Assembly: GCA_043808095.1 (NCBI GenBank) | Contig: JAZDFF010000001.1 | Span: 94,230 to 158,229, forward strand | DNA: 64,000 nucleotides | Direction of reading: 5' to 3' | DNA from: Candidatus Omnitrophota bacterium | Lineage (GTDB): Bacteria > Omnitrophota > Gorgyraeia > JAZDFF01 | Part shown: piece after piece, positions 14,358 through 63,941 of the stretch | Position numbering within the stretch: position 1 is the first letter of the stretch | How the letters are laid out: every line of letters begins with the position of its first letter | Translations under genes and position numbers: made by a program | Notes under the pieces: model-generated | What the model was told of the DNA's origin: nothing | Database searches by the model: none | What the model saw: only the letters and a program-made list of their open reading frames with translations

Positions 14358-16519
14358 AATATATTAAATTTAATTTATTATTGATAGTAGTCATAATAGC
14401 TATGTCGTTCTGGTATGCCTTTCCGCTCCAGAAACGGATAAACTTGGGCCTGGATTTACAAGGAGGCATGCACCTGGTTTTAAAGGTGGATACCTCAAAA
14501 TTATCTAAAGAGGCCAAGAAAGACGCCGCTGAAAGGGCGCTTGAAATTATCCGAAACCGTATTGATGAGTTCGGAGTAAAAGAGCCTGCGATCAGCCGCC
14601 AGGGCGAGGATGAGATTGTGGTGCAACTTCCGGGCATTACCGACAGAAAAAGGGCCCTGGATTTGATCGGCCAGACTGCGGTACTTGAATTCAAACTGGT
14701 CAATTCTGATCCTACTGCTTTAAAAGATGCCCTTGAAGGCAAAATCCCCGAGGGTTATGAACTGAAATATCTTGAAAAGGAACCGCTGATTTTAGAAAAA
14801 GAGGCATCCATAACCGGCGAATACCTGGTGGATGCAGGAGTACAGTTTGACCAGGCAGGTTTTGGCGAGCCGATAGTAGCGGTAAAATTTAACGCCGAAG
14901 GCGCCAAGAAATTTGCCGATATTACAGCTTCATATGTTGGCCGGCGACTGGCGATTATTTTAGACGGCCATGTTAAATCCGCGCCCCGTATTAATGAACC
15001 GATACCGTCTGGAGAAGGAGTTATTACCGGAAGGTTCACCATTGAAGAAGCCAATGACCTGGCCATTGCCCTTCGCGTGGGTGCTTTGCCTGCGCCCATA
15101 AACATAGAGGAAGAGCGTACTGTCGGGCCGCTTCTCGGCCAGGACTCGATAAATAGCGGAGTAAAGGCAAGCATAATTGGCTGTGTTGGCGTATTTGGCT
15201 TTATGATTTTATATTATCTTTTTGCCGGGTTTATCGCCTGCATCGCCCTGATGCTTAATTTTCTGATAATATTAGGCGCAATGGGGATGTTCCATGCTAC
15301 CCTGACCTTACCCGGTATTGCCGGTATTGTCCTTACCCTTGGTATGGCGGTTGATGCTAATGTGCTTATCAGCGAGCGTATCCGGGAGGAATTAAGGGCA
15401 GGTAAGTCCCTAAGGATAGCCATTAATAATGGTTATCAAAGGGCCTTTAGTGCGATATTTGATTCAAATGTGACTACGCTCATTGCCGCTGCTTTGTTAT
15501 TTCAATTCGGGACCGGCCCTATCCGGGGATTTGCGCTTACCTTAACCATAGGTTTACTAGCCAGCCTTTATACCGCAGTTATAGTCACCCATCTAATCTT
15601 TGAAGTATTGCTGAACAGCAGGCTCATAAGCGGACTGCCGATGCTACAGATTTTTAAAGAAAAACCCAGCATAGATTTTATCGGGAAAAGAAAAATATTT
15701 TATACCATATCCGTCTTAATAATCTTATTGGGCATGGGCAGTGTTATCCTAAGGGGAAAAAATATGCTGGGCATAGAGCTTTCAGGCGGCCAGCTACAGG
15801 AATATAAGTTTGAACAACCGGTTGCCATTGGAGATATCAGGGCAGGCTTAAAGGGCATTGGTATTGATGAGGCCTCAATCCAGCAATTTAAGGATTTTCC
15901 TAATAATATAAGTATCCGCACCAACCAGGACACCTTTGATAAGGTCTCTGCCAATCTCTCGGCTAATTTTCCCGATAATAAATTCGAGATTTTAAAAATA
16001 GAAAAAATCGGCCCCAGCATAGGTAAACAACTTAGGAAGCGGGCAATACTTGCTATTTTTTGGTCTCTCTTAGGCATACTGATTTATGTCGCCTTTAGGT
16101 TTAAGCACTTTAATTTTGCCATTGCCGGAGTTATCGCCCTCCTTCATGATATCTTTATGGCTGTAGGCTTTATCGCCCTGACCGGAAGGCAGATAGATTT
16201 GTTAATGGTAACTGCCTTCCTGACTATTGCAGGATATTCCATAAATGATACCATTGTTATTTATGACCGCGTCAGGGAAGTGAGTCGAAGCTCCGGAAAA
16301 ATCACCCTTGCACAGGCCATTAATCAGGGAGTAAACCTGACATTAAGCAGGACCATACTGACTTCTTTCGTCACATTGCTCGTAGTATTCTCCCTGTTTT
16401 TTTTCGGGGGAGAGGTCTTAAATGGTTTTGCCTTTTGTTTAATAGTCGGATTTTTCTCTGGAATATATTCTACTATTTTTATCGCCTCGCCACTTGTTTT
16501 AGCCTGGCAGAAGAAATAA
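14354..16519 (+). CDS. secDF: Protein translocase SecDF fusion
   Basis: 721 aa with periplasmic domain plus two RND-like 6-TM bundles; follows yajC. Confidence 0.85.
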   Translation: MKYIKFNLLLIVVIIAMSFWYAFPLQKRINLGLDLQGGMHLVLKVDTSKLSKEAKKDAAERALEIIRNRIDEFGVKEPAISRQGEDEIVVQLPGITDRKRALDLIGQTAVLEFKLVNSDPTALKDALEGKIPEGYELKYLEKEPLILEKEASITGEYLVDAGVQFDQAGFGEPIVAVKFNAEGAKKFADITASYVGRRLAIILDGHVKSAPRINEPIPSGEGVITGRFTIEEANDLAIALRVGALPAPINIEEERTVGPLLGQDSINSGVKASIIGCVGVFGFMILYYLFAGFIACIALMLNFLIILGAMGMFHATLTLPGIAGIVLTLGMAVDANVLISERIREELRAGKSLRIAINNGYQRAFSAIFDSNVTTLIAAALLFQFGTGPIRGFALTLTIGLLASLYTAVIVTHLIFEVLLNSRLISGLPMLQIFKEKPSIDFIGKRKIFYTISVLIILLGMGSVILRGKNMLGIELSGGQLQEYKFEQPVAIGDIRAGLKGIGIDEASIQQFKDFPNNISIRTNQDTFDKVSANLSANFPDNKFEILKIEKIGPSIGKQLRKRAILAIFWSLLGILIYVAFRFKHFNFAIAGVIALLHDIFMAVGFIALTGRQIDLLMVTAFLTIAGYSINDTIVIYDRVREVSRSSGKITLAQAINQGVNLTLSRTILTSFVTLLVVFSLFFFGGEVLNGFAFCLIVGFFSGIYSTIFIASPLVLAWQKK

Positions 16520-16520
16520 G

Positions 16521-16690
16521 TGAGGCCACGACTTACGGAATGGAATGAACGTAAGTCGTCTTGGCCGAACTTATCCCCCACCACTTTTTGGAAAAGCATA
16601 AAATTCTCATTAAAGGTTTTACTCCTAAATTTACCTTTCATACTATCTCGAGTACTCTTTCAAAAAGTGGTGGGGGATTAAATTCGTCCG
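16521..16690. mobile_element. Cargo-free copy of the palindromic element that carries the GIY-YIG gene at 63291-63680
   Basis: Same left arm as 63291-63350 (TGAGGCC..ACTTACGGA..ACGTAAGT..GGCCGAA); perfect 18-bp inverted repeats ATCCCCCACCACTTTTTG (16573-16590) and CAAAAAGTGGTGGGGGAT (16661-16678) flank about 70 bp with no ORF; same TTAAATTCG tail. Confidence 0.7.
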
Positions 16691-16718
16691 CCACTGAATC
16701 AATGGCGGGCTCATTAAA

Positions 16719-18644
16719 ATGTTTAAGTCATTAAAACTCTACCGAAACCAAATAATCGAATTAGAAAGTGTTGTTACACAGCTAGACCAACTCGGCTATA
16801 GGCGCCAAAATCAGACTCAGGAAGAAGGCGACTTTAGCCTGCGCGGGGATGTCCTGGATATATTTCCTGCCACTTTCGAATTTCCTATAAGGATTGACCT
16901 TGACGTTGAAAGTATTAATGCGATTAGAAGTTTTAGCACGAGCGACGCAAAACCAATTTTAGAGCACGAGGCAGTAATAATTTTACCCAAAAAGATTTCA
17001 AGCGGTCTTTCTAAGCTTCATTTGGATTTTAAAGAAGAGGTTCCGATTGACAATTTCCTCGATTTAGCAATCGGCGATTATGTAGTACACGTAAAGCACG
17101 GTATCGGCAGGTTTTTGGGGATGAATAAAATTAATACCAAAGACGGCCCAAAAGACCACTTAATTGTTGAATATGCCGGTAATGACAGGTTATTTGTGCC
17201 GGTAGATTCTATGCACCTGGTGCAGAAGTATATCAGTTTTGAAAGGGGCAGGCCGAAATTATATAAATTAGGCTCCGGAGAGTGGCTCCGGGTCAAGAAC
17301 AGGGCAAGAAAAGGGATCTTTCTTTATGCAGCCGAGCTCCTAAGGATGCAGGCGGCAAGAGAGAGTCTTTCGGGATTTAGTTTCTCCCCCGATACTGACT
17401 GGCAAAAAGAATATGAAAAGAATTTTCCTTACGTTGAGACTCCCGACCAGGCCAAGGCTACTGTTATGGTTAAGCAAGATATGGAGTCGTCTCAACCCAT
17501 GGATAGGCTTCTTTGCGGAGATGTCGGTTACGGAAAGACCGAGGTAGCCATGCGTGCTGCCTTTAAGGCGGTAATGGATAACAAACAAGTGGCAATCCTT
17601 GTTCCCACGACGATCTTGGCTGAGCAGCATTATTATAATTTCTCCAGTCGCCTTAAGGACTTTCCTATTAATGTCGAGATGCTCAGCCGTTTTAAGTCTC
17701 ATGCTGAACAAAAGAATATCATAAAGATGCTGGCAGCGGGGCTCGTTGACATCGTAATCGGAACCCACCGTTTAATTTCAAACGACATCAAATTCAAAGA
17801 CTTAGGGCTAGTAATCATTGATGAGGAGCAGCGTTTTGGGGTAAGGGCAAAAGAAAAACTTAAGAATTTGCGACTCTTAGTGGATGTCCTGACTTTGACT
17901 GCAACGCCAATTCCGCGTACACTTTATATGTCTTTAATGGGCGCTAAAGATATGTCGGTTATAAATACTGCCCCCCAAAACCGCCTGCCCATTGAGACCT
18001 ATGTCGCTGAATATAGCGATGCCCTCGTGCGCCAGGCGATATTGCGGGAACATCGCCGTAGCGGCCAGGTATTTTTTGTGCATAATCGTGTCCAAAGAAT
18101 TGAAAAGATTTTAAAAAGACTATCTAGGCTTTTACCAAGCACTATAAAGATCGGTCTGGCCCATGGGCAAATGGATTCGCGCAGCCTTGAAAAGATAATG
18201 TTTTCTTTTTTAAAAGGAAACCTTGACGTTTTGGTTTCTACTTCTATAATTGAATCAGGGATAGATGTACCTAATGCCAATACCCTTATTGTTGATAATG
18301 CCCAGGATTTTGGTTTGGCGGACTTACATCAGTTGCGGGGCAGGGTGGGCAGGTTCAATGTGAAGGCCTTTGCCTATTTTCTTACGCTTAATATTAGCCT
18401 CTTATCAACCGAGTCCCAAAAACGCCTTGAAGTAATCAAAAAATATTCCCAGTTAGGAGCAGGTTTTAAGATTGCCTTTGAGGATTTAGGAATCCGCGGG
18501 GCAGGAAACCTTTTGGGAGTACAACAGCATGGTTTTATCTCATCGGTAGGTTTTGATCTTTATTGCCGCCTGCTTCGCGAGACCATCAGTAATCTAAAAG
18601 GGCGTCACAAAAGTTCCGCCTTTAGGCTGGAACGATTTTTGTGA
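16719..18644 (+). CDS. mfd: Mfd-like transcription-repair coupling factor, core only (lacks UvrB-homology N-terminus and C-terminal D7)
   Basis: RNAP-interacting motif DYVVHVKHGIGRF, helicase motifs GDVGYGKTEVA, DEEQRFG, QLRGRVGR; 641 aa versus about 1150 aa for canonical Mfd. Confidence 0.8.
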   Translation: MFKSLKLYRNQIIELESVVTQLDQLGYRRQNQTQEEGDFSLRGDVLDIFPATFEFPIRIDLDVESINAIRSFSTSDAKPILEHEAVIILPKKISSGLSKLHLDFKEEVPIDNFLDLAIGDYVVHVKHGIGRFLGMNKINTKDGPKDHLIVEYAGNDRLFVPVDSMHLVQKYISFERGRPKLYKLGSGEWLRVKNRARKGIFLYAAELLRMQAARESLSGFSFSPDTDWQKEYEKNFPYVETPDQAKATVMVKQDMESSQPMDRLLCGDVGYGKTEVAMRAAFKAVMDNKQVAILVPTTILAEQHYYNFSSRLKDFPINVEMLSRFKSHAEQKNIIKMLAAGLVDIVIGTHRLISNDIKFKDLGLVIIDEEQRFGVRAKEKLKNLRLLVDVLTLTATPIPRTLYMSLMGAKDMSVINTAPQNRLPIETYVAEYSDALVRQAILREHRRSGQVFFVHNRVQRIEKILKRLSRLLPSTIKIGLAHGQMDSRSLEKIMFSFLKGNLDVLVSTSIIESGIDVPNANTLIVDNAQDFGLADLHQLRGRVGRFNVKAFAYFLTLNISLLSTESQKRLEVIKKYSQLGAGFKIAFEDLGIRGAGNLLGVQQHGFISSVGFDLYCRLLRETISNLKGRHKSSAFRLERFL

Positions 18645-31314: not shown

Positions 31315-31746
31315 ATGGCAACTGATAATCAGGTCATTTACAGGCTTATTTTAGCGGTTTTTTTGGGCGGGATTATCGGGTTGGAACGCCAGATTCATCA
31401 TCGGGCTGCAGGATTAAGGACGCACATCTTAGTTTCTTTAGGTTCGGCACTGATTATGTTGACATCGCTTTATATTTTTGGTATATACCAAAATGTAGCT
31501 AATGTCGACCCGGGCCGAATTGCCGCAGGCGTGATTACCGGCATCGGATTCTTGGGAGCTGGTACGATCTTCCGACAACAAGATCAAGTTATGGGCCTGA
31601 CTACCGCAGCAAGCCTATGGGCAGTTGCAGCGATTGGTCTTGCCGTGGGATGCGGTTTCTTATCAGCTGCGCTTGTGGCCACGGCATTAGTTTTAACATG
31701 CCTTTTTATTTTAAGAAGACTCGAAAAATATTTAGGAAAGGGATAA
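31315..31746 (+). CDS. mgtC: MgtC/SapB family membrane protein (membrane domain only)
   Basis: GGIIGLERQ...AGLRTHILVSLGSAL typical of MgtC; 143 aa, lacks the C-terminal soluble domain. Confidence 0.75.
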   Translation: MATDNQVIYRLILAVFLGGIIGLERQIHHRAAGLRTHILVSLGSALIMLTSLYIFGIYQNVANVDPGRIAAGVITGIGFLGAGTIFRQQDQVMGLTTAASLWAVAAIGLAVGCGFLSAALVATALVLTCLFILRRLEKYLGKG

Positions 31747-31749
31747 AAT

Positions 31750-31920
31750 GAGGACATAATTTACGGAATACGGTGACGTAAATTATGTGTCCGAATTTTA
31801 CCCTTGACATTTTCCTTAATGATGAAAATTTTAGGCAGATGTCAAGGGTTTAACTCGCACATATAACTTACATCGCTTTGAGTTAATCACTGGTTCTGTA
31901 AGTTATGTGCACGTAAAAGG
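31750..31920. repeat. Palindromic repeat cluster (ACGGAA...CGTAAGT and CCCTTGACAT/ATGTCAAGGG hairpins)
   Basis: Inverted repeats visible; ACTTACG/CGTAAGT module shared with 16530-16560 and 63300-63340. Confidence 0.65.
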
Positions 31921-50507: not shown

Positions 50508-50622
50508 CTTTTCCAAAATTGACTACGTCAATTTTGGAGTAGCGAGTAGAGAATATTTTATTCACTGACTACTATGTACTATTTACTGATTACTAAAGGG
50601 ATGATTTCTTATAGTTTAAAAC

Positions 50623-50982
50623 GGGCAGGTACCCAAGCGGTCAAAGGGGACAGACTGTTTAAAAGCAGCGCCCCGACGAAAGTCGTGGTGGAAAAGTAGG
50701 TGAATTCAGGGAAACCCTCTCGTAACTACGAAAGGTAATCCTGAGCCAATCCTCGCACAAAGCTGGCAGGCAGAAGGCCTGCTTGCTGAAGCTTTAGCGA
50801 AGGCAGGTGCAGAGACTAAGCGCCTACCACCTAAAACTGGATGAAGCCCAGTTTTATCCCAAGCGAAGTTAAGGGATAACTTCTCTGGTTAAGGTGATGA
50901 GATAGTCCAAGCCTTGAGGAAACTCAAGGGATACTTGAAATCTGTTGCACACGCTTCAGAGGTTCGAATCCTCTCCTGCCCA
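50623..50982 (+). tRNA. tRNA-Tyr(GTA) interrupted by a group I intron in the anticodon loop
   Basis: Exons GGGCAGGTACCCAAGCGGTCAAAGGGGACAGACTGT + AAATCTGTTGCACACGCTTCAGAGGTTCGAATCCTCTCCTGCCCA form a class-II Tyr cloverleaf (acceptor GGGCAGG/CCTGCCC, anticodon stem ACAGA/TCTGT, loop CTGT|AAA). Confidence 0.75.
50659..50937 (+). ncRNA. Group I intron (IC3-like, no ORF) within tRNA-Tyr
   Basis: 5' splice site after U with GCAG guide-sequence partner; terminal G; core elements AATCCTGAGCCAA, GGTGCAGAGACTAAGCG and GAGATAGTCC resemble cyanobacterial tRNA-Leu intron P3/P7 elements as recalled from memory. Confidence 0.7.
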
Positions 50983-51084
50983 TTCTACTTCGCTCAAGTG
51001 CTTTCGCCTTGGGCTTCGTAGAAATTATTGGGAAAGGAAGGTTCTGAGTAGCTGAAAGTGAAAACAATTTAGCGAAGGAGAATC

Positions 51085-61550: not shown

Positions 61551-63206
61551 ATGCAACAGCCCGAACAAGAAATTCATCTTAGTGATTACTTTAGAGTAAT
61601 CAAAAACAGGAAAAAAATTGTATTAATTTTTTTCTTTACTGTCGTCTTTATTGTAACTTTGGGTAGTTTCCTGATGCAGCCGGTTTACCGCGCCACGGTC
61701 ACCTTATTTGTTGATATAGAAAGCCCTAAACTACTTACGACCAGCGGCTCGATGTCTTTAGACAGCATGAATTACCTTGCTTATAAAGAGTACCTTGAAA
61801 GCCAGAAAGAGATTATCAAAAGCCGCAGCATCATCAATCAGGTATTTAAAGAGTTTAAGTTAGGGGAAAGCCGGGAGTACCTTGCCTCCAAAGACCCGAT
61901 AAAAAAGTTCCTTGGAGATGTAAAAGTTGAAACGGTGCGTGATACACGCCTGATGAACTTATATGTAGATAACAAAGACCCCGAGATGGCCGCTGATATT
62001 GCTAACCGGATTGCTGAAATATTTGTCGCCCACAATCTTACCTACATTACTAAAGGTGAAATAATTAATCTGCATAAAAACGAGTATCTAAAACTAAAGA
62101 CGCAACTTTCCGAGTATAGCAATGTTTATAAAGATAAGCACCCCAAGATGATTCGCCTTAAGGAAGAAATCGCGCAGTTGGTGGTGAATTTGATTCAAGA
62201 AGAAGAGGGGGCAGTAGTGGGCTCAATGTCTTCTCCCGGAGTTTACGTGGAAGTTCCAGGTTCGATTCTTGCGGGTTTGAAGGCAAATAATATTACGATC
62301 CAGGATAAGGCCGAAGTTCCGATGTGGCCGATAAAGCCGAAGAAGCGCCTGAATATTCTTCTGGCGATGATAGTCGGCCTTTCTGGCGGGATAGGGTTGG
62401 TGTTTTTCATTGAATATTTGGATGATACTGTAAAAAATATTGAAGATATAAGGCGGTTGGTTGAATGGCCTTTTTTAGGAAGCGTACCGGACATTGATAG
62501 CGGAACTAAAGAGTTCGATAAAGACCTCCTGACGCACATTAGGCCCAAGGATCCTATAGCAGAATCATACAGGGCTATTCGTACAAGCGTGCTTTTTTCA
62601 TCTACCGAAGAACATCCCTTAAAAAGCATTATTGTTACCAGCCCTGGTCCACAGGAAGGCAAGACTACCACTCTTTGCAATTTAGGTATTACTATGGCCC
62701 AGAATCAGAAACAGGTACTTCTGGTGGATGCAGATATGCGCAAACCCCGCTTACACGATGTATTTAAGACGAATAACGAGATTGGCTTAAGTAATTTTCT
62801 TTCCGGGCAGGCCGTATTTACAGATCTGGCGCAAAAGACCGAAATAGATAATCTATTTTTAGTGCCAGGCGGCCCGTATCCTCCTAATCCATCGGAGCTT
62901 TTAACCAGTAATAAAATGAAGGAATTCATTGAGAAGGCTAAGACAAAGTTTGACATTATTTTATTCGACACCTCACCTATTGCCGTAGTTACTGATGCAG
63001 TTATCCTTTCTCAGGCAGTTGATGGGAGCATTGTAGTGCTGCAAGGCGGCAAGACAAGCAAAAGGGTGCTGCCCAGAATCAGCCAGTTATTAAAGGAGGC
63101 CCGAGCCAGGATAGTCGGCGTTTTGCTTAATAGGGTCTCTTCTGCCCGCAGCGACGACTATAGTTATCACTATTATTACGGAAAGACAAAAAAACAAAAG
63201 ACATAA
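61551..63206 (+). CDS. wzc: Polysaccharide co-polymerase / BY-kinase (Wzc-like)
   Basis: Wzz-type N-terminal domain with 2 TM helices, Walker A SPGPQEGKTTT, C-terminal Tyr cluster YSYHYYYG. Confidence 0.8.
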   Translation: MQQPEQEIHLSDYFRVIKNRKKIVLIFFFTVVFIVTLGSFLMQPVYRATVTLFVDIESPKLLTTSGSMSLDSMNYLAYKEYLESQKEIIKSRSIINQVFKEFKLGESREYLASKDPIKKFLGDVKVETVRDTRLMNLYVDNKDPEMAADIANRIAEIFVAHNLTYITKGEIINLHKNEYLKLKTQLSEYSNVYKDKHPKMIRLKEEIAQLVVNLIQEEEGAVVGSMSSPGVYVEVPGSILAGLKANNITIQDKAEVPMWPIKPKKRLNILLAMIVGLSGGIGLVFFIEYLDDTVKNIEDIRRLVEWPFLGSVPDIDSGTKEFDKDLLTHIRPKDPIAESYRAIRTSVLFSSTEEHPLKSIIVTSPGPQEGKTTTLCNLGITMAQNQKQVLLVDADMRKPRLHDVFKTNNEIGLSNFLSGQAVFTDLAQKTEIDNLFLVPGGPYPPNPSELLTSNKMKEFIEKAKTKFDIILFDTSPIAVVTDAVILSQAVDGSIVVLQGGKTSKRVLPRISQLLKEARARIVGVLLNRVSSARSDDYSYHYYYGKTKKQKT

Positions 63207-63290
63207 GCTAACCGATTGTTTGCAGGCCTTTTAAAAGACCTGCATTTAATTTTCTATAGCATATTGTAATAAACGTTATTAGATTGTAAA

Positions 63291-63680
63291 TGAGGCCCGA
63301 ACTTACGGATCCCAGCGAAATGTTGGTAGAACGTAAGTTTGCTGGCCGAATTTACCCCCACACCAATTATCTATACAACTGAAAGGAAAGGATAAAGGCA
63401 ATGTTTTATGTTTATTTATTAAAAAGTAATAAAGATAGCAATCTTTACATAGGTCTCACACATAACTTAAAACGAAGGGTTCAACAGCATAATAATGGCT
63501 TAGTTGTTTCTACAAAATTAAGAAGACCATTTGAAGTAGTATATTGCGAAGGGTATAAATCAGAGAAAGACGCAAGACTCAGAGAAAAGAACCTTAAATT
63601 AAGATCTCGTGCATTTGCTCAATTAAAGAAACGGATTACAGCAAGTTTATCATAATAATTGGTGTGGGGGTTTAATTCGC
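63291..63680. mobile_element. Palindromic element carrying a GIY-YIG nuclease gene between perfect 17-bp inverted repeats
   Basis: IR-L ACCCCCACACCAATTAT (63354-63370) and IR-R ATAATTGGTGTGGGGGT (63655-63671); left arm TGAGGCC..ACTTACGGA..ACGTAAGT..GGCCGAA and right tail TTAATTCG shared with the cargo-free copy at 16521-16690. Confidence 0.7.
63401..63655 (+). CDS. Small GIY-YIG nuclease (YhbQ/UPF0213-like)
   Basis: MFYVYLLKSNKDSNLYIGLTHNLKRRVQQHNNG with GIY-YIG-type N-terminal motif; 84 aa. Confidence 0.8.
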   Translation: MFYVYLLKSNKDSNLYIGLTHNLKRRVQQHNNGLVVSTKLRRPFEVVYCEGYKSEKDARLREKNLKLRSRAFAQLKKRITASLS

Positions 63681-63752
63681 AGACGGTCTTACGACCTATG
63701 ATTTATGTCGTCATCCTGACTCCATAAATCATCTGCTAATTAAAGGAGAAAA

Positions 63753-63941
63753 ATGGCAGAAAAAAAGTTACTTTTAACCAAAGAAGCTGCGAGTCTCTTA
63801 AGAATAAGCGAGGAGTACCTGCGCTGCCTTATAAGACAGAAAAAGATTTCCGCTTATAAAGAAGGGCGGCGGGGAGGATATAGGATACCCTTGCAGGAGA
63901 TAGATAATTATATCTCCCGGGGCATAAAGAATAATCCTTGA
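63753..63941 (+). CDS. Excisionase-family HTH DNA-binding protein
   Basis: LLLTKEAASLLRISEEYLRCLIRQKKISAYKEGRRGGYRIPLQEIDNYI fits the HTH_17/Xis pattern. Confidence 0.65.
   Translation: MAEKKLLLTKEAASLLRISEEYLRCLIRQKKISAYKEGRRGGYRIPLQEIDNYISRGIKNNP

Follow-up and report, generated by a model that had tools for sequence, protein, structure and literature searches.

A GIY-YIG nuclease gene nested in a palindromic repeat of Omnitrophota, probably a small selfish DNA element in a lineage-specific form

The DNA analysed here, a 64,000-nucleotide (nt) stretch of a Candidatus Omnitrophota genome that we call the window, carries near 63 kb a gene for an 84-amino-acid (aa) nuclease of the GIY-YIG family, enclosed by the two arms of a palindrome. 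We regard this locus as probably a small, selfish and mobile DNA element, in a form that is new and specific to its lineage. The anatomy of the locus, a family-wide coupling of gene and arms, 4-nt target duplications, purifying selection on the open reading frame (ORF) and turnover at an orthologous site are all observed in the window and its relatives, and they are the basis of this conclusion.

Anatomy of the module and its copies in the window

Each copy in the window is a module of three adjacent hairpins, P1, P2 and P3. P1 combines an AT-rich basal stem, tandem GA/GA, a GGCC/GGCC step, the pairing ACTTACG/CGTAAGT and a small apical hairpin. P2, the hairpin in the centre, is variable, and its arms are the inverted repeat that was picked out in the initial annotation of this DNA. 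P3 has the frame TTTAAT-TC-G...C-TC-ATTAAA, which on the opposite strand is the P1 frame AATGAG...CGAATT; it is a degenerate unit of the P1 kind in inverted orientation. When a covariance model of the P1 copies (R1) was run on the window, it matched the three P1 hairpins and, on the minus strand, all three P3 positions (E = 6e-8, 1e-3 and 3e-3). Each of the three modules has a stop codon or an upstream region before it and the ribosome-binding site of a gene after it.

The gene-bearing copy begins with P1 at 63286–63355 (plus strand), which has the basal stem GTAAAT/ATTTAC, followed by the GA/GA, GGCC/GGCC, ACTTACG/CGTAAGT and apical elements described above, with a DNA fold of −14.9 kcal/mol (z = −4.9) and an R1 score of 65.2 bits (E = 9e-14). 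The P2 arms, as read from the sequence, are ACCCCCACACCAATTAT (63354–63370, plus strand) and ATAATTGGTGTGGGGGT (63655–63671, plus strand), each 17 nt long and perfectly complementary to the other. Between them lies the gene for the single-domain GIY-YIG nuclease (63401–63655, plus strand, 84 aa), preceded by the Shine-Dalgarno-like AAAGGAAAGGA. Its stop codon TAA (63653–63655) shares its final base with the right arm, which begins there. The initial annotation had described just such an ORF, set between perfect 17-nt inverted repeats with its stop at the right repeat, and the sequence bears it out. Directly outside the C-run of the left arm stands the tetranucleotide TTTA (63351–63354), which recurs as a direct repeat at 63671–63674 in the manner of a target-site duplication. 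P3 follows on the minus strand (63671–63744; TTTAAT-TC-GCAGA...TCTGC-TA-ATTAAA) as a degenerate P1-like unit, with a DNA fold at z = −6.9 and an R1 match at 63697–63732 (E = 1e-3), and its right end adjoins the ribosome-binding site of a downstream HTH_17 gene.

A gene-free copy of the same three-hairpin module occupies 16516–16718. Its P1 (16516–16574, plus strand; R1 67.4 bits; DNA fold z = −6.2) begins directly after the stop codon of a secF-like gene, its P2 (16573–16678, plus strand) has 18-nt perfect arms, ATCCCCCACCACTTTTTG and CAAAAAGTGGTGGGGGAT (16573–16590 and 16661–16678), around a 70-nt loop, and its P3 (16676–16720, minus strand), TTAAATTCG-TCCGCCA...TGGCGGG-CTCATTAAA, is an inverted P1-like unit that R1 matches on the minus strand at E = 3e-3. 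The downstream gene starts at 16719. A cargo-free copy had been placed near 16521–16690, with a perfect inverted repeat of its own and a loop of about 70 bp, and this is the module found. The 16-kb and 63-kb copies have in common the left hairpin TGAGGCC..ACTTACGGA..ACGTAAGT..GGCCGAA and the right tail TTAAATTCG. These had been taken for a shared left arm and right tail bounding a GIY-YIG element; they are instead separate hairpins, P1 and the inverted P1-like P3, of a mosaic specific to Omnitrophota.

Because R1 also matched at 31.8 kb, a third module could be recognized in the window, likewise gene-free (31744–31920), which the initial annotation had missed. It consists of P1 (31744–31800, plus strand; R1 match at 31742–31802, 64.0 bits, E = 2e-13), P2 (31800–31849, plus strand; arms ACCCTTGACAT and ATGTCAAGGGT) and an inverted P1-like P3 (31847–31920, minus strand; R1 42 bits, E = 6e-8 on that strand), after which the next gene follows with its ribosome-binding site and its start codon (31933). 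The P2 arm type ACCCTTGACAT encloses a different GIY-YIG gene in the metagenome-assembled genome (MAG) Zod_Metabat.1113 (locus L105; loci outside the window are given by such numbers). The 16-kb P2 loop contains no ORF and no detectable ORF remnant, and no remnant was found in the loops of either gene-free copy in the window.

The hairpins fold far better than shuffled sequences, with z = −8.95 as RNA for the 16-kb copy and z = −2.5 to −6.9 as DNA. At the 63-kb and 16-kb loci, Rfam 15 gave nothing at its gathering threshold and only noise at E values up to 10, and ARAGORN found no transfer RNA (tRNA) or transfer-messenger RNA.

The nuclease family and its arms

The 84-aa protein matches the Pfam GIY-YIG family (PF01541) over residues 1–71 with E = 4e-17, and an AlphaFold 2 model from 28 homologues (pLDDT 90.3) consists of one compact GIY-YIG domain. 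The fold matches the UPF0213 protein BH0048, the nuclease domains of SLX1 (TM 0.62–0.69) and the catalytic domain of I-TevI; SLX1 is a structure-specific nuclease, and this match supports the interpretation proposed below. Residues invariant in the family include Y5, Y16, R26, H30 and E62, which we take to be the GIY-YIG catalytic residues. The window protein has 349 homologues at E ≤ 1e-5, typically 60–82% identical, whose named sources include Omnitrophota, the Candidate Phyla Radiation (CPR; Portnoybacteria), Endomicrobiia and Cloacimonadota, and a 100% identical protein was found in a Candidatus Omnitrophota MAG.

The ORF is under purifying selection. The ratio of nonsynonymous to synonymous divergence (dN/dS) among the window, L001 and L004 is 0.10–0.14 at dS of 0.85–1.45, and over all measurable family pairs it is 0.06–0.23, with dS from 0.85 up to saturation. 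Between these three loci the synonymous sites of the ORF are nearly saturated, yet the 17-nt arms do not differ. The gene copy in L068 is frameshifted.

The coupling of the gene to its arms was examined in a DNA sample of 80 metagenomic loci and several assembly loci. About 86 loci contain 87 elements bounded by the arm core CCCCCACACC...GGTGTGGGGG, with an ORF inside 60 of the 87 and the other 27 gene-free; the gene-free elements with this core span 26–170 nt. The arms, 11–25 nt long in the family elements, are perfect over the first 11 nt in 75 of the 87. Their outer 10 nt are conserved, and their inner part differs by locus (AATTAT, TAATCAGTTT, TGTTTTGTTA, TTTCATCTCAT and others), with compensation in every case. 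In many loci the left arm (CCAATTATG...) includes the ATG, which pairs with sequence past the stop codon. Only in Omnitrophota-like contigs (the window, L001–L004, L010, L018, L028 and L068) is the gene accompanied by P1 and P3; outside Omnitrophota it carries the inner inverted repeat only. In the BMS3Abin15-type contig loci L006 (3067–3321) and L007 (2389–2643), a second 84-aa GIY-YIG gene, without obvious CCCCCACACC arms, lies 1 kb downstream of the arm-enclosed gene.

These data also bear on an earlier argument. The initial annotation had read the two different but perfectly paired repeats of the 63-kb and 16-kb copies as compensatory change, showing that the pairing itself is selected. 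Arm pairing is indeed kept across many copies and genomes, but the two P2 repeats in the window are unrelated, swappable types rather than the product of point-mutational covariation in one ancestral hairpin. Genuine covariation is located in P1 and, across the protein family, in the inner part of the arms.

Exact 4-nt direct repeats stand at the C-run/G-run boundary of the arms in 25 of 85 elements, as compared with a mean of 4.9 and a maximum of 12 in 2000 permutations of the flanks between loci, and a register shifted by one or two bases gives them in 0–3 elements. Their sequences include TAAA, TTTA, TGAA, TTGA, TCAA, CACA, CCTA, CTTG, CAAG, TGTG and ATAA, the window copy having TTTA/TTTA. 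Since they differ between loci, they are target duplications and not element sequence. One gene-free element, in L039 (5381–5452), keeps the last ~30 nt of the ORF and is thus an internal-deletion derivative.

In about 13 of 60 loci the element stands against a tRNA gene. Examples are found in L036 (5986–6339), L058 (5974–6351), L055 (54–441) and L029 (1367–1703), and also in L012, L033 and L056. The terminal G-run forms the first 1–3 bases of the downstream tRNA in several such loci, and in others the left arm overlaps the 3′ end of the upstream tRNA (GGCACCA). The arm core CCCCCACACCA resembles the 3′ strand of a tRNA acceptor stem plus CCA, and the adjacency may reflect a target preference.

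The mosaic repeat and its turnover in Omnitrophota

The P1 pattern is present in at least 120 stretches of a species-representative genome collection, nearly all of them from Candidatus Omnitrophota, with up to 12 per MAG among the matches listed. In an alignment of 129 distinct P1 copies, 87% of the cells are paired, versus 75% in shuffles and 25–40% with the partners slid, and 454 cells are changed on both sides versus 164 in shuffles. Among single pairs, one splits into 86 C-G and 43 A-T copies, with no copy unpaired, and another is T-A in 63 and C-G in 62. The frames AATGAGG...CCGAATT are conserved, and G-U accounts for 47 of 3088 cells (1.5%). The rarity of G-U, the inverted P1-like P3 and the perfect P2 palindromes together point to selection on DNA symmetry and not on a single RNA. 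The hairpin therefore most likely matters as DNA, in the form of either-strand hairpins or a cruciform, rather than as RNA. The initial annotation had proposed a palindromic family, with and without a GIY-YIG gene, akin to repetitive extragenic palindromic (REP) sequences and miniature inverted-repeat transposable elements (MITEs), and had suggested looking for further copies, covariation and folding as RNA and DNA. The copies found support such a family: there are at least 120 P1 sites, P1 covaries and the folds are better than those of shuffles.

The central hairpin, P2, is a swappable module. P1 is followed by a hairpin of many unrelated sequence types, and this usually by TTAATTCG... (P3). 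No locus has a P1–P3 junction without a central hairpin, and insertion of P2 into a pre-existing empty P1/P3 palindrome is thus unsupported. In the MAG LacPavin_0920_SED3_MAG_47_10, 12 P1 copies (L199–L210) are each followed by a nearly identical nested hairpin, GTCCGAGGCATGAGCGGATTTTAACGAAATCCGCGAATGTCTGCCGAGGAC, in what looks like a recent genome-specific expansion of one module type; none of the copies sampled bears a gene.

At 4 of 124 P1 sites, in loci that were chosen for the presence of P1, P2 encloses an ORF, and all four ORFs encode small GIY-YIG proteins. These are 26–47% identical to one another and 35–39% identical to the window protein, with a different pair of arms for each gene type: ACCCCCACACCAATTAT in the window, ACCCAGCACTAATTTTA in L190, ACCCCGCCCTCTA in L192 and ACCCTTGACATTTTGCGAT in L105. 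A tblastn search of 1.09 Mb of these P1 loci and the window found no further small GIY-YIG gene of this class, all four being inside P2. The MAG Zod_Metabat.1113 has one gene-bearing copy (L105) and five gene-free P2 copies with a common arm, ACCCTTGACATTTT.

Turnover can be followed at the orthologous site of the window element. The gene order Wzc kinase, element, HTH_17 is common to the window and L001–L003, and a search with the HTH_17 protein gathered four further loci (L211–L214). In L001, where Wzc is 66% identical, the same gene-bearing P2 is present as in the window. L211, with Wzc 92% identical and flanking DNA nearly the same as in the window, retains the module frames (AAATGAAGAC...CTGTCTGAATTTA, then TTTAATTCG...CTCATTAAAGGAG); all three hairpin cores differ from those of the window, and its P2 (arms CCCCGCCCTTTTGG) is gene-free. 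L213 (Wzc 63% identical) has no module and keeps the Wzc-to-HTH_17 order, and in L212 and L214 there is no module upstream of HTH_17 and other genes stand there. One site is therefore seen filled (L001), differently filled (L211) and empty (L213), and the comparison of orthologous loci that had been suggested did lead to an empty site. Hairpin cores are replaced wholesale while the frames persist, a turnover that fits either copy-to-copy conversion between dispersed modules or repeated targeting of one slot. The gene could also have proved syntenic in relatives that lack the repeats, as the initial annotation had considered; in L001 it is syntenic and the repeats are retained. In L211 (2825–2885) the apical part of P1, ACTTACGGA...ACGTAAGT, is swapped for the hairpin ACCCCCATTCTTGC...GCATGGGGGT, so that cores are swappable inside P1 as well as at P2.

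The genes on either side of the site show features of their own. The HTH_17 gene of the 'excisionase family' (63753–63941; 62 aa, 75–93% identity) is a conserved small Omnitrophota gene that heads polysaccharide-synthesis loci, and the motif ATATTGTAATAAA...ATTAAATTGTAA is conserved upstream of it in the window, L001 and L211–L214. It is present with or without the module and is therefore not part of the mobile element, and an integrative element was rejected on this ground. After the Wzc gene and upstream of the 63-kb module, a GC-rich hairpin, GCAGGCCTTTTAAAAGACCTGC (63224–63245), is kept in L211 and L001 and is probably the Wzc terminator; a simple terminator scan made no call at this hairpin, and promoter and terminator scans of 63150–63800 did no better than on shuffled sequences.

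Interpretation and known systems

The closest precedent was recently described by Chenal et al. (Nat Commun 2025; PMC11893778), who reported single-domain GIY-YIG Ssn proteins (CDD cd10448) whose genes are flanked by cognate hairpin repeats. The repeats are found near 71% of ssn genes and on both sides in 42%, and specificities differ among homologues (PMC11893778). Ssn enzymes were shown experimentally to cleave single-stranded DNA (ssDNA) in a strand-specific manner beside the cognate hairpin (NTS/SRM), and they are inactive on double-stranded DNA and on RNA (PMC11893778). For SsnA/NTS of Neisseria, cutting of incoming or replicating ssDNA at dispersed hairpins has been proposed to modulate recombination, transformation or repair (PMC11893778). 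The initial annotation knew of no described equivalent of the window element, which the Ssn nucleases with their cognate hairpin repeats contradict (PMC11893778). Its analogy with REP sequences and their associated tyrosine transposases (RAYTs) was apt, and Chenal et al. likewise compare the repeat–gene–repeat layout with insertion sequences (IS) and REP/RAYT (PMC11893778).

The only homologue of the window protein in the plasmid database, from Azospirillum lipoferum (37% identity over 70 aa), is encoded between sufB and sufC by an Ssn-type gene bracketed by four canonical SRM hairpins. Together with the Ssn precedent, this SRM-bracketed homologue suggests that the window element works like, and is probably related to, an Ssn/SRM pair.

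We consider it reasonably likely that the locus is a selfish or semi-domesticated element acting at the level of DNA, whose nuclease would recognize the hairpin of its own arms and cut at the foot of it, allowing insertion or exchange. The 63-kb locus would then be a palindromic DNA repeat that carries, in its P2 loop, a single-domain GIY-YIG gene of the Ssn/UPF0213 kind. The enzyme would recognize a hairpin or cruciform of the flanking arms (core CCCCCACACC/GGTGTGGGGG) and cut near its foot, as Ssn enzymes do on ssDNA, and through this cutting the hairpin with its gene, as well as derivatives that lack the gene but have matching arms, would spread, or be swapped, from site to site. Across most phyla such a unit has only the arms and the gene, and it resembles a minimal transposon in its terminal inverted repeats and its 4-bp duplications of the target. 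In Omnitrophota the gene-bearing hairpin fills the central, swappable slot of the three-hairpin mosaic, between P1 and the inverted P1-like P3. The conserved frames of this mosaic may serve as homology for copy-to-copy conversion, and the 16.5-kb and 31.8-kb copies are its gene-free members with other P2 types. Cutting at its own arms, ssDNA as the substrate, mobility and the manner of insertion or conversion are what we infer from these arrangements.

Several observations weigh against this account: (i) The loci behind the count of 4 genes in 124 P1 sites and behind the 1.09-Mb search were chosen for P1, so the gene count is not an unbiased genome survey. (ii) Among the three modules in the 64 kb of the window, the two gene-free P2 copies are without the arm sequence of the gene-bearing copy. 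(iii) Of the 85 family loci, only one has a match to the SRM consensus no more than 400 nt from the gene, whereas the Azospirillum control has 4 SRMs. (iv) The family profile also matches UPF0213 structures, at E = 1e-10, about as well. (v) Exact duplications are present in only about 30% of the elements, and some appear to run into the terminal G-run or C-run, blurring the element boundary. (vi) Lineages with only 66% identity in Wzc still have the gene at one and the same site, which speaks for long residence or domestication and against frequent movement. (vii) To our knowledge GIY-YIG enzymes are hydrolytic nucleases for which no strand transfer is known, so the 4-bp duplications and any movement would need host repair or another enzyme.

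A more far-reaching proposal, which we regard as possible though doubtful, is that the unit of arms plus gene (about 280–320 bp) is an autonomous transposon with the 84-aa GIY-YIG nuclease as its sole protein. It would insert with 4-bp duplications, often at G-run/C-run sites such as the ends of tRNA genes, and would in addition undergo homing-like conversion between Omnitrophota mosaic sites via the P1 and P3 frames. If true, no self-mobilising DNA element yet known would be smaller, and among prokaryotic transposons it would be the first to be driven by a GIY-YIG enzyme.

It is unlikely, in our judgement, that these are ordinary MITEs whose mobility comes in trans from an unrelated transposase encoded elsewhere, for example of the DDE type, and that the GIY-YIG gene is a passenger, such as a free-standing gene of the homing-endonuclease kind that colonized the loop. 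Terminal inverted repeats with 4-bp target duplications are the classic DDE footprint, we know of no GIY-YIG nuclease that acts as a transposase, and gene-free copies outnumber gene-bearing ones in Omnitrophota by 120 to 4. However, about 1.5 Mb of loci contained no longer element and no transposase gene with these terminal repeats, only pairs of separate copies, and in the same loci the GIY-YIG gene is the sole ORF enclosed by such ends. One protein family is tied to one arm core in Omnitrophota, CPR, Cloacimonadota and other contigs, and four GIY-YIG types each have their own arm type, a pattern difficult to account for if the arms had nothing to do with the protein. The strong purifying selection on the ORF also speaks against a mere passenger.

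An Ssn-like nuclease domesticated for a host function, namely the cutting of ssDNA at dispersed hairpins, with its own flanking hairpins as a relic or a means of autoregulation, seems similarly improbable. The presence of the gene at the same locus in lineages with 66% Wzc identity, at a dN/dS of about 0.1, is in keeping with domestication, as are the many dispersed hairpin modules in Omnitrophota genomes and the experimental precedent in Neisseria (PMC11893778). In contrast, the different P2 arms of the other two modules leave few obvious cognate sites within the 64 kb, most family members in other phyla are single arm-enclosed genes with target duplications and varied contexts, and the L068 copy is frameshifted.

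Very improbable, finally, is a role at the level of RNA, in which the module would be transcribed within operons or 5′ untranslated regions, P1, P2 and P3 would be mRNA stabilizers, processing sites or translational regulators and the arms would sequester the start region of the GIY-YIG gene. All three window copies have the orientation of the genes on either side of them and sit between a stop codon and a following ribosome-binding site, 38 sites run the same way as both neighbours as compared with 16 opposite to both, the ATG within the left arm pairs past the stop codon in many family members, the RNA folds are very stable, and the 63-kb module lies in the 5′ untranslated region of HTH_17, downstream of a conserved upstream region. 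However, the 1.5% of G-U cells and the perfect Watson-Crick arms fit both-strand or duplex symmetry, P3 as an inverted copy of P1 is a symmetry of DNA and not of a one-sense RNA, and the 4-nt target duplications, the multi-copy genome-specific expansions and the absence of any Rfam family match all argue against RNA function. Moreover, 35 of 95 sites are antisense to their neighbours or lie between divergent or convergent ones, so that the orientation is a bias and no rule, and strict co-orientation with genes was rejected. An RNA role could also coexist with an origin at the DNA level, as for REP elements.

To the Ssn nucleases, first described as recently as 2025, the arrangement reported here adds a second, sequence-distinct lineage of nuclease and cognate hairpin in uncultured phyla (Omnitrophota, CPR and others), and its loop-nested gene, duplications, internal-deletion derivatives and cassette-like turnover make the mobility of such elements directly testable. 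Among the sampled loci, at least four pairs of nuclease and arms offer candidates for new nucleases with specificity for single strands and for sequence. As a repeat class, the three-hairpin mosaic of Omnitrophota is abundant and had not been described before; it deserves recognition in annotation and can confuse predictions of noncoding RNAs and terminators.

The element is not a RAYT, the partner of a DDE-type MITE, an intron-borne homing endonuclease or a known RNA family, although it shares features with several mobile systems. Like the REP sequences, bacterial interspersed mosaic elements and RAYT systems, it involves dispersed intergenic palindromes arranged in mosaics of units in alternating orientation (P1, P2 and the inverted P1-like P3), and like REP/RAYT it combines a single-copy nuclease gene, flanked by cognate palindromes, with genome-specific repeat types. 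However, its enzyme is GIY-YIG whereas a RAYT is an HUH/Y1 transposase (TnpA-REP), its P1 is about 60 nt long and has no conserved tag like the GTAG/CGTC of the 20–40-bp REP, and its gene is nested in a hairpin loop whereas RAYT genes are flanked by REPs. With bacterial MITEs (Correia elements, RUP, Nezha) it has in common a short length, terminal inverted repeats, short target duplications, a hairpin spanning the whole element and gene-free derivatives of a longer coding element (L039). Its partner, unlike theirs, is a unit of roughly 300 bp that codes only for the 84-aa nuclease and not an IS with a DDE transposase. By analogy with IS200/IS605 its ends may be recognized as DNA hairpins, with ssDNA as the likely substrate. 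Those elements use a Y1 HUH transposase, have subterminal, non-complementary hairpins and make no target duplication, in contrast to the GIY-YIG enzyme, mutually complementary arms and 4-nt duplications here.

GIY-YIG homing endonucleases of the I-TevI type share the catalytic fold and, in a sense, the location, the gene lying inside a repeat whose gene-free copies could be targets; the conserved flanks could act as homology arms, and the cassette-like replacement at the orthologous site is also homing-like. The window protein, however, has 84 aa in total and neither DNA-binding domain nor linker, there is no intron or intein, and the NCBIfam model grpIintron_endo (TIGR01453) gives it 16.8 bits against a cut-off of 56. 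An intron-borne homing endonuclease was rejected, as no intron model matches at the locus and the one group I intron of the window lies 12 kb away in a tRNA gene and is unrelated. That intron (RF00028, 86.6 bits, 50593–50929) has tRNA exons at about 50623–50658 and 50937–50985, and interrupts the anticodon loop of a gene that we read from the sequence as tRNA-Tyr(GTA)-like, its variable arm being long; ARAGORN makes no call of this tRNA.

The Ssn/SRM pair resembles the window element in its single-domain GIY-YIG protein (about 85–95 aa in Ssn, 84 aa here) without a second DNA-binding domain, in a gene bracketed by hairpin-forming inverted repeats that also exist gene-free, and in a repeat that differs with each homologue. 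The repeat here, CCCCCACACC...GGTGTGGGGG, departs from the SRM consensus HGTCWYN(0-2)YYVSBRHN(0-5)WNVSBRGN(0-2)RNCYNB, which has one match in the window, at an unrelated place (42771). The C-terminus of the window protein, NLKLRSRAFAQLKKRI, differs from that of the Azospirillum homologue, the sole canonical Ssn-type sequence compared. The gene is nested between the arms of one hairpin, whereas ssn genes have complete short hairpins on each side; 4-nt target duplications are present, whereas none are reported for Ssn; and the Omnitrophota hairpin belongs, as one module, to a mosaic of three. Thus, the window element has a described equivalent in the Ssn/SRM pair, and differs from it in its repeat sequence, the nesting of its gene, its duplications and its mosaic.

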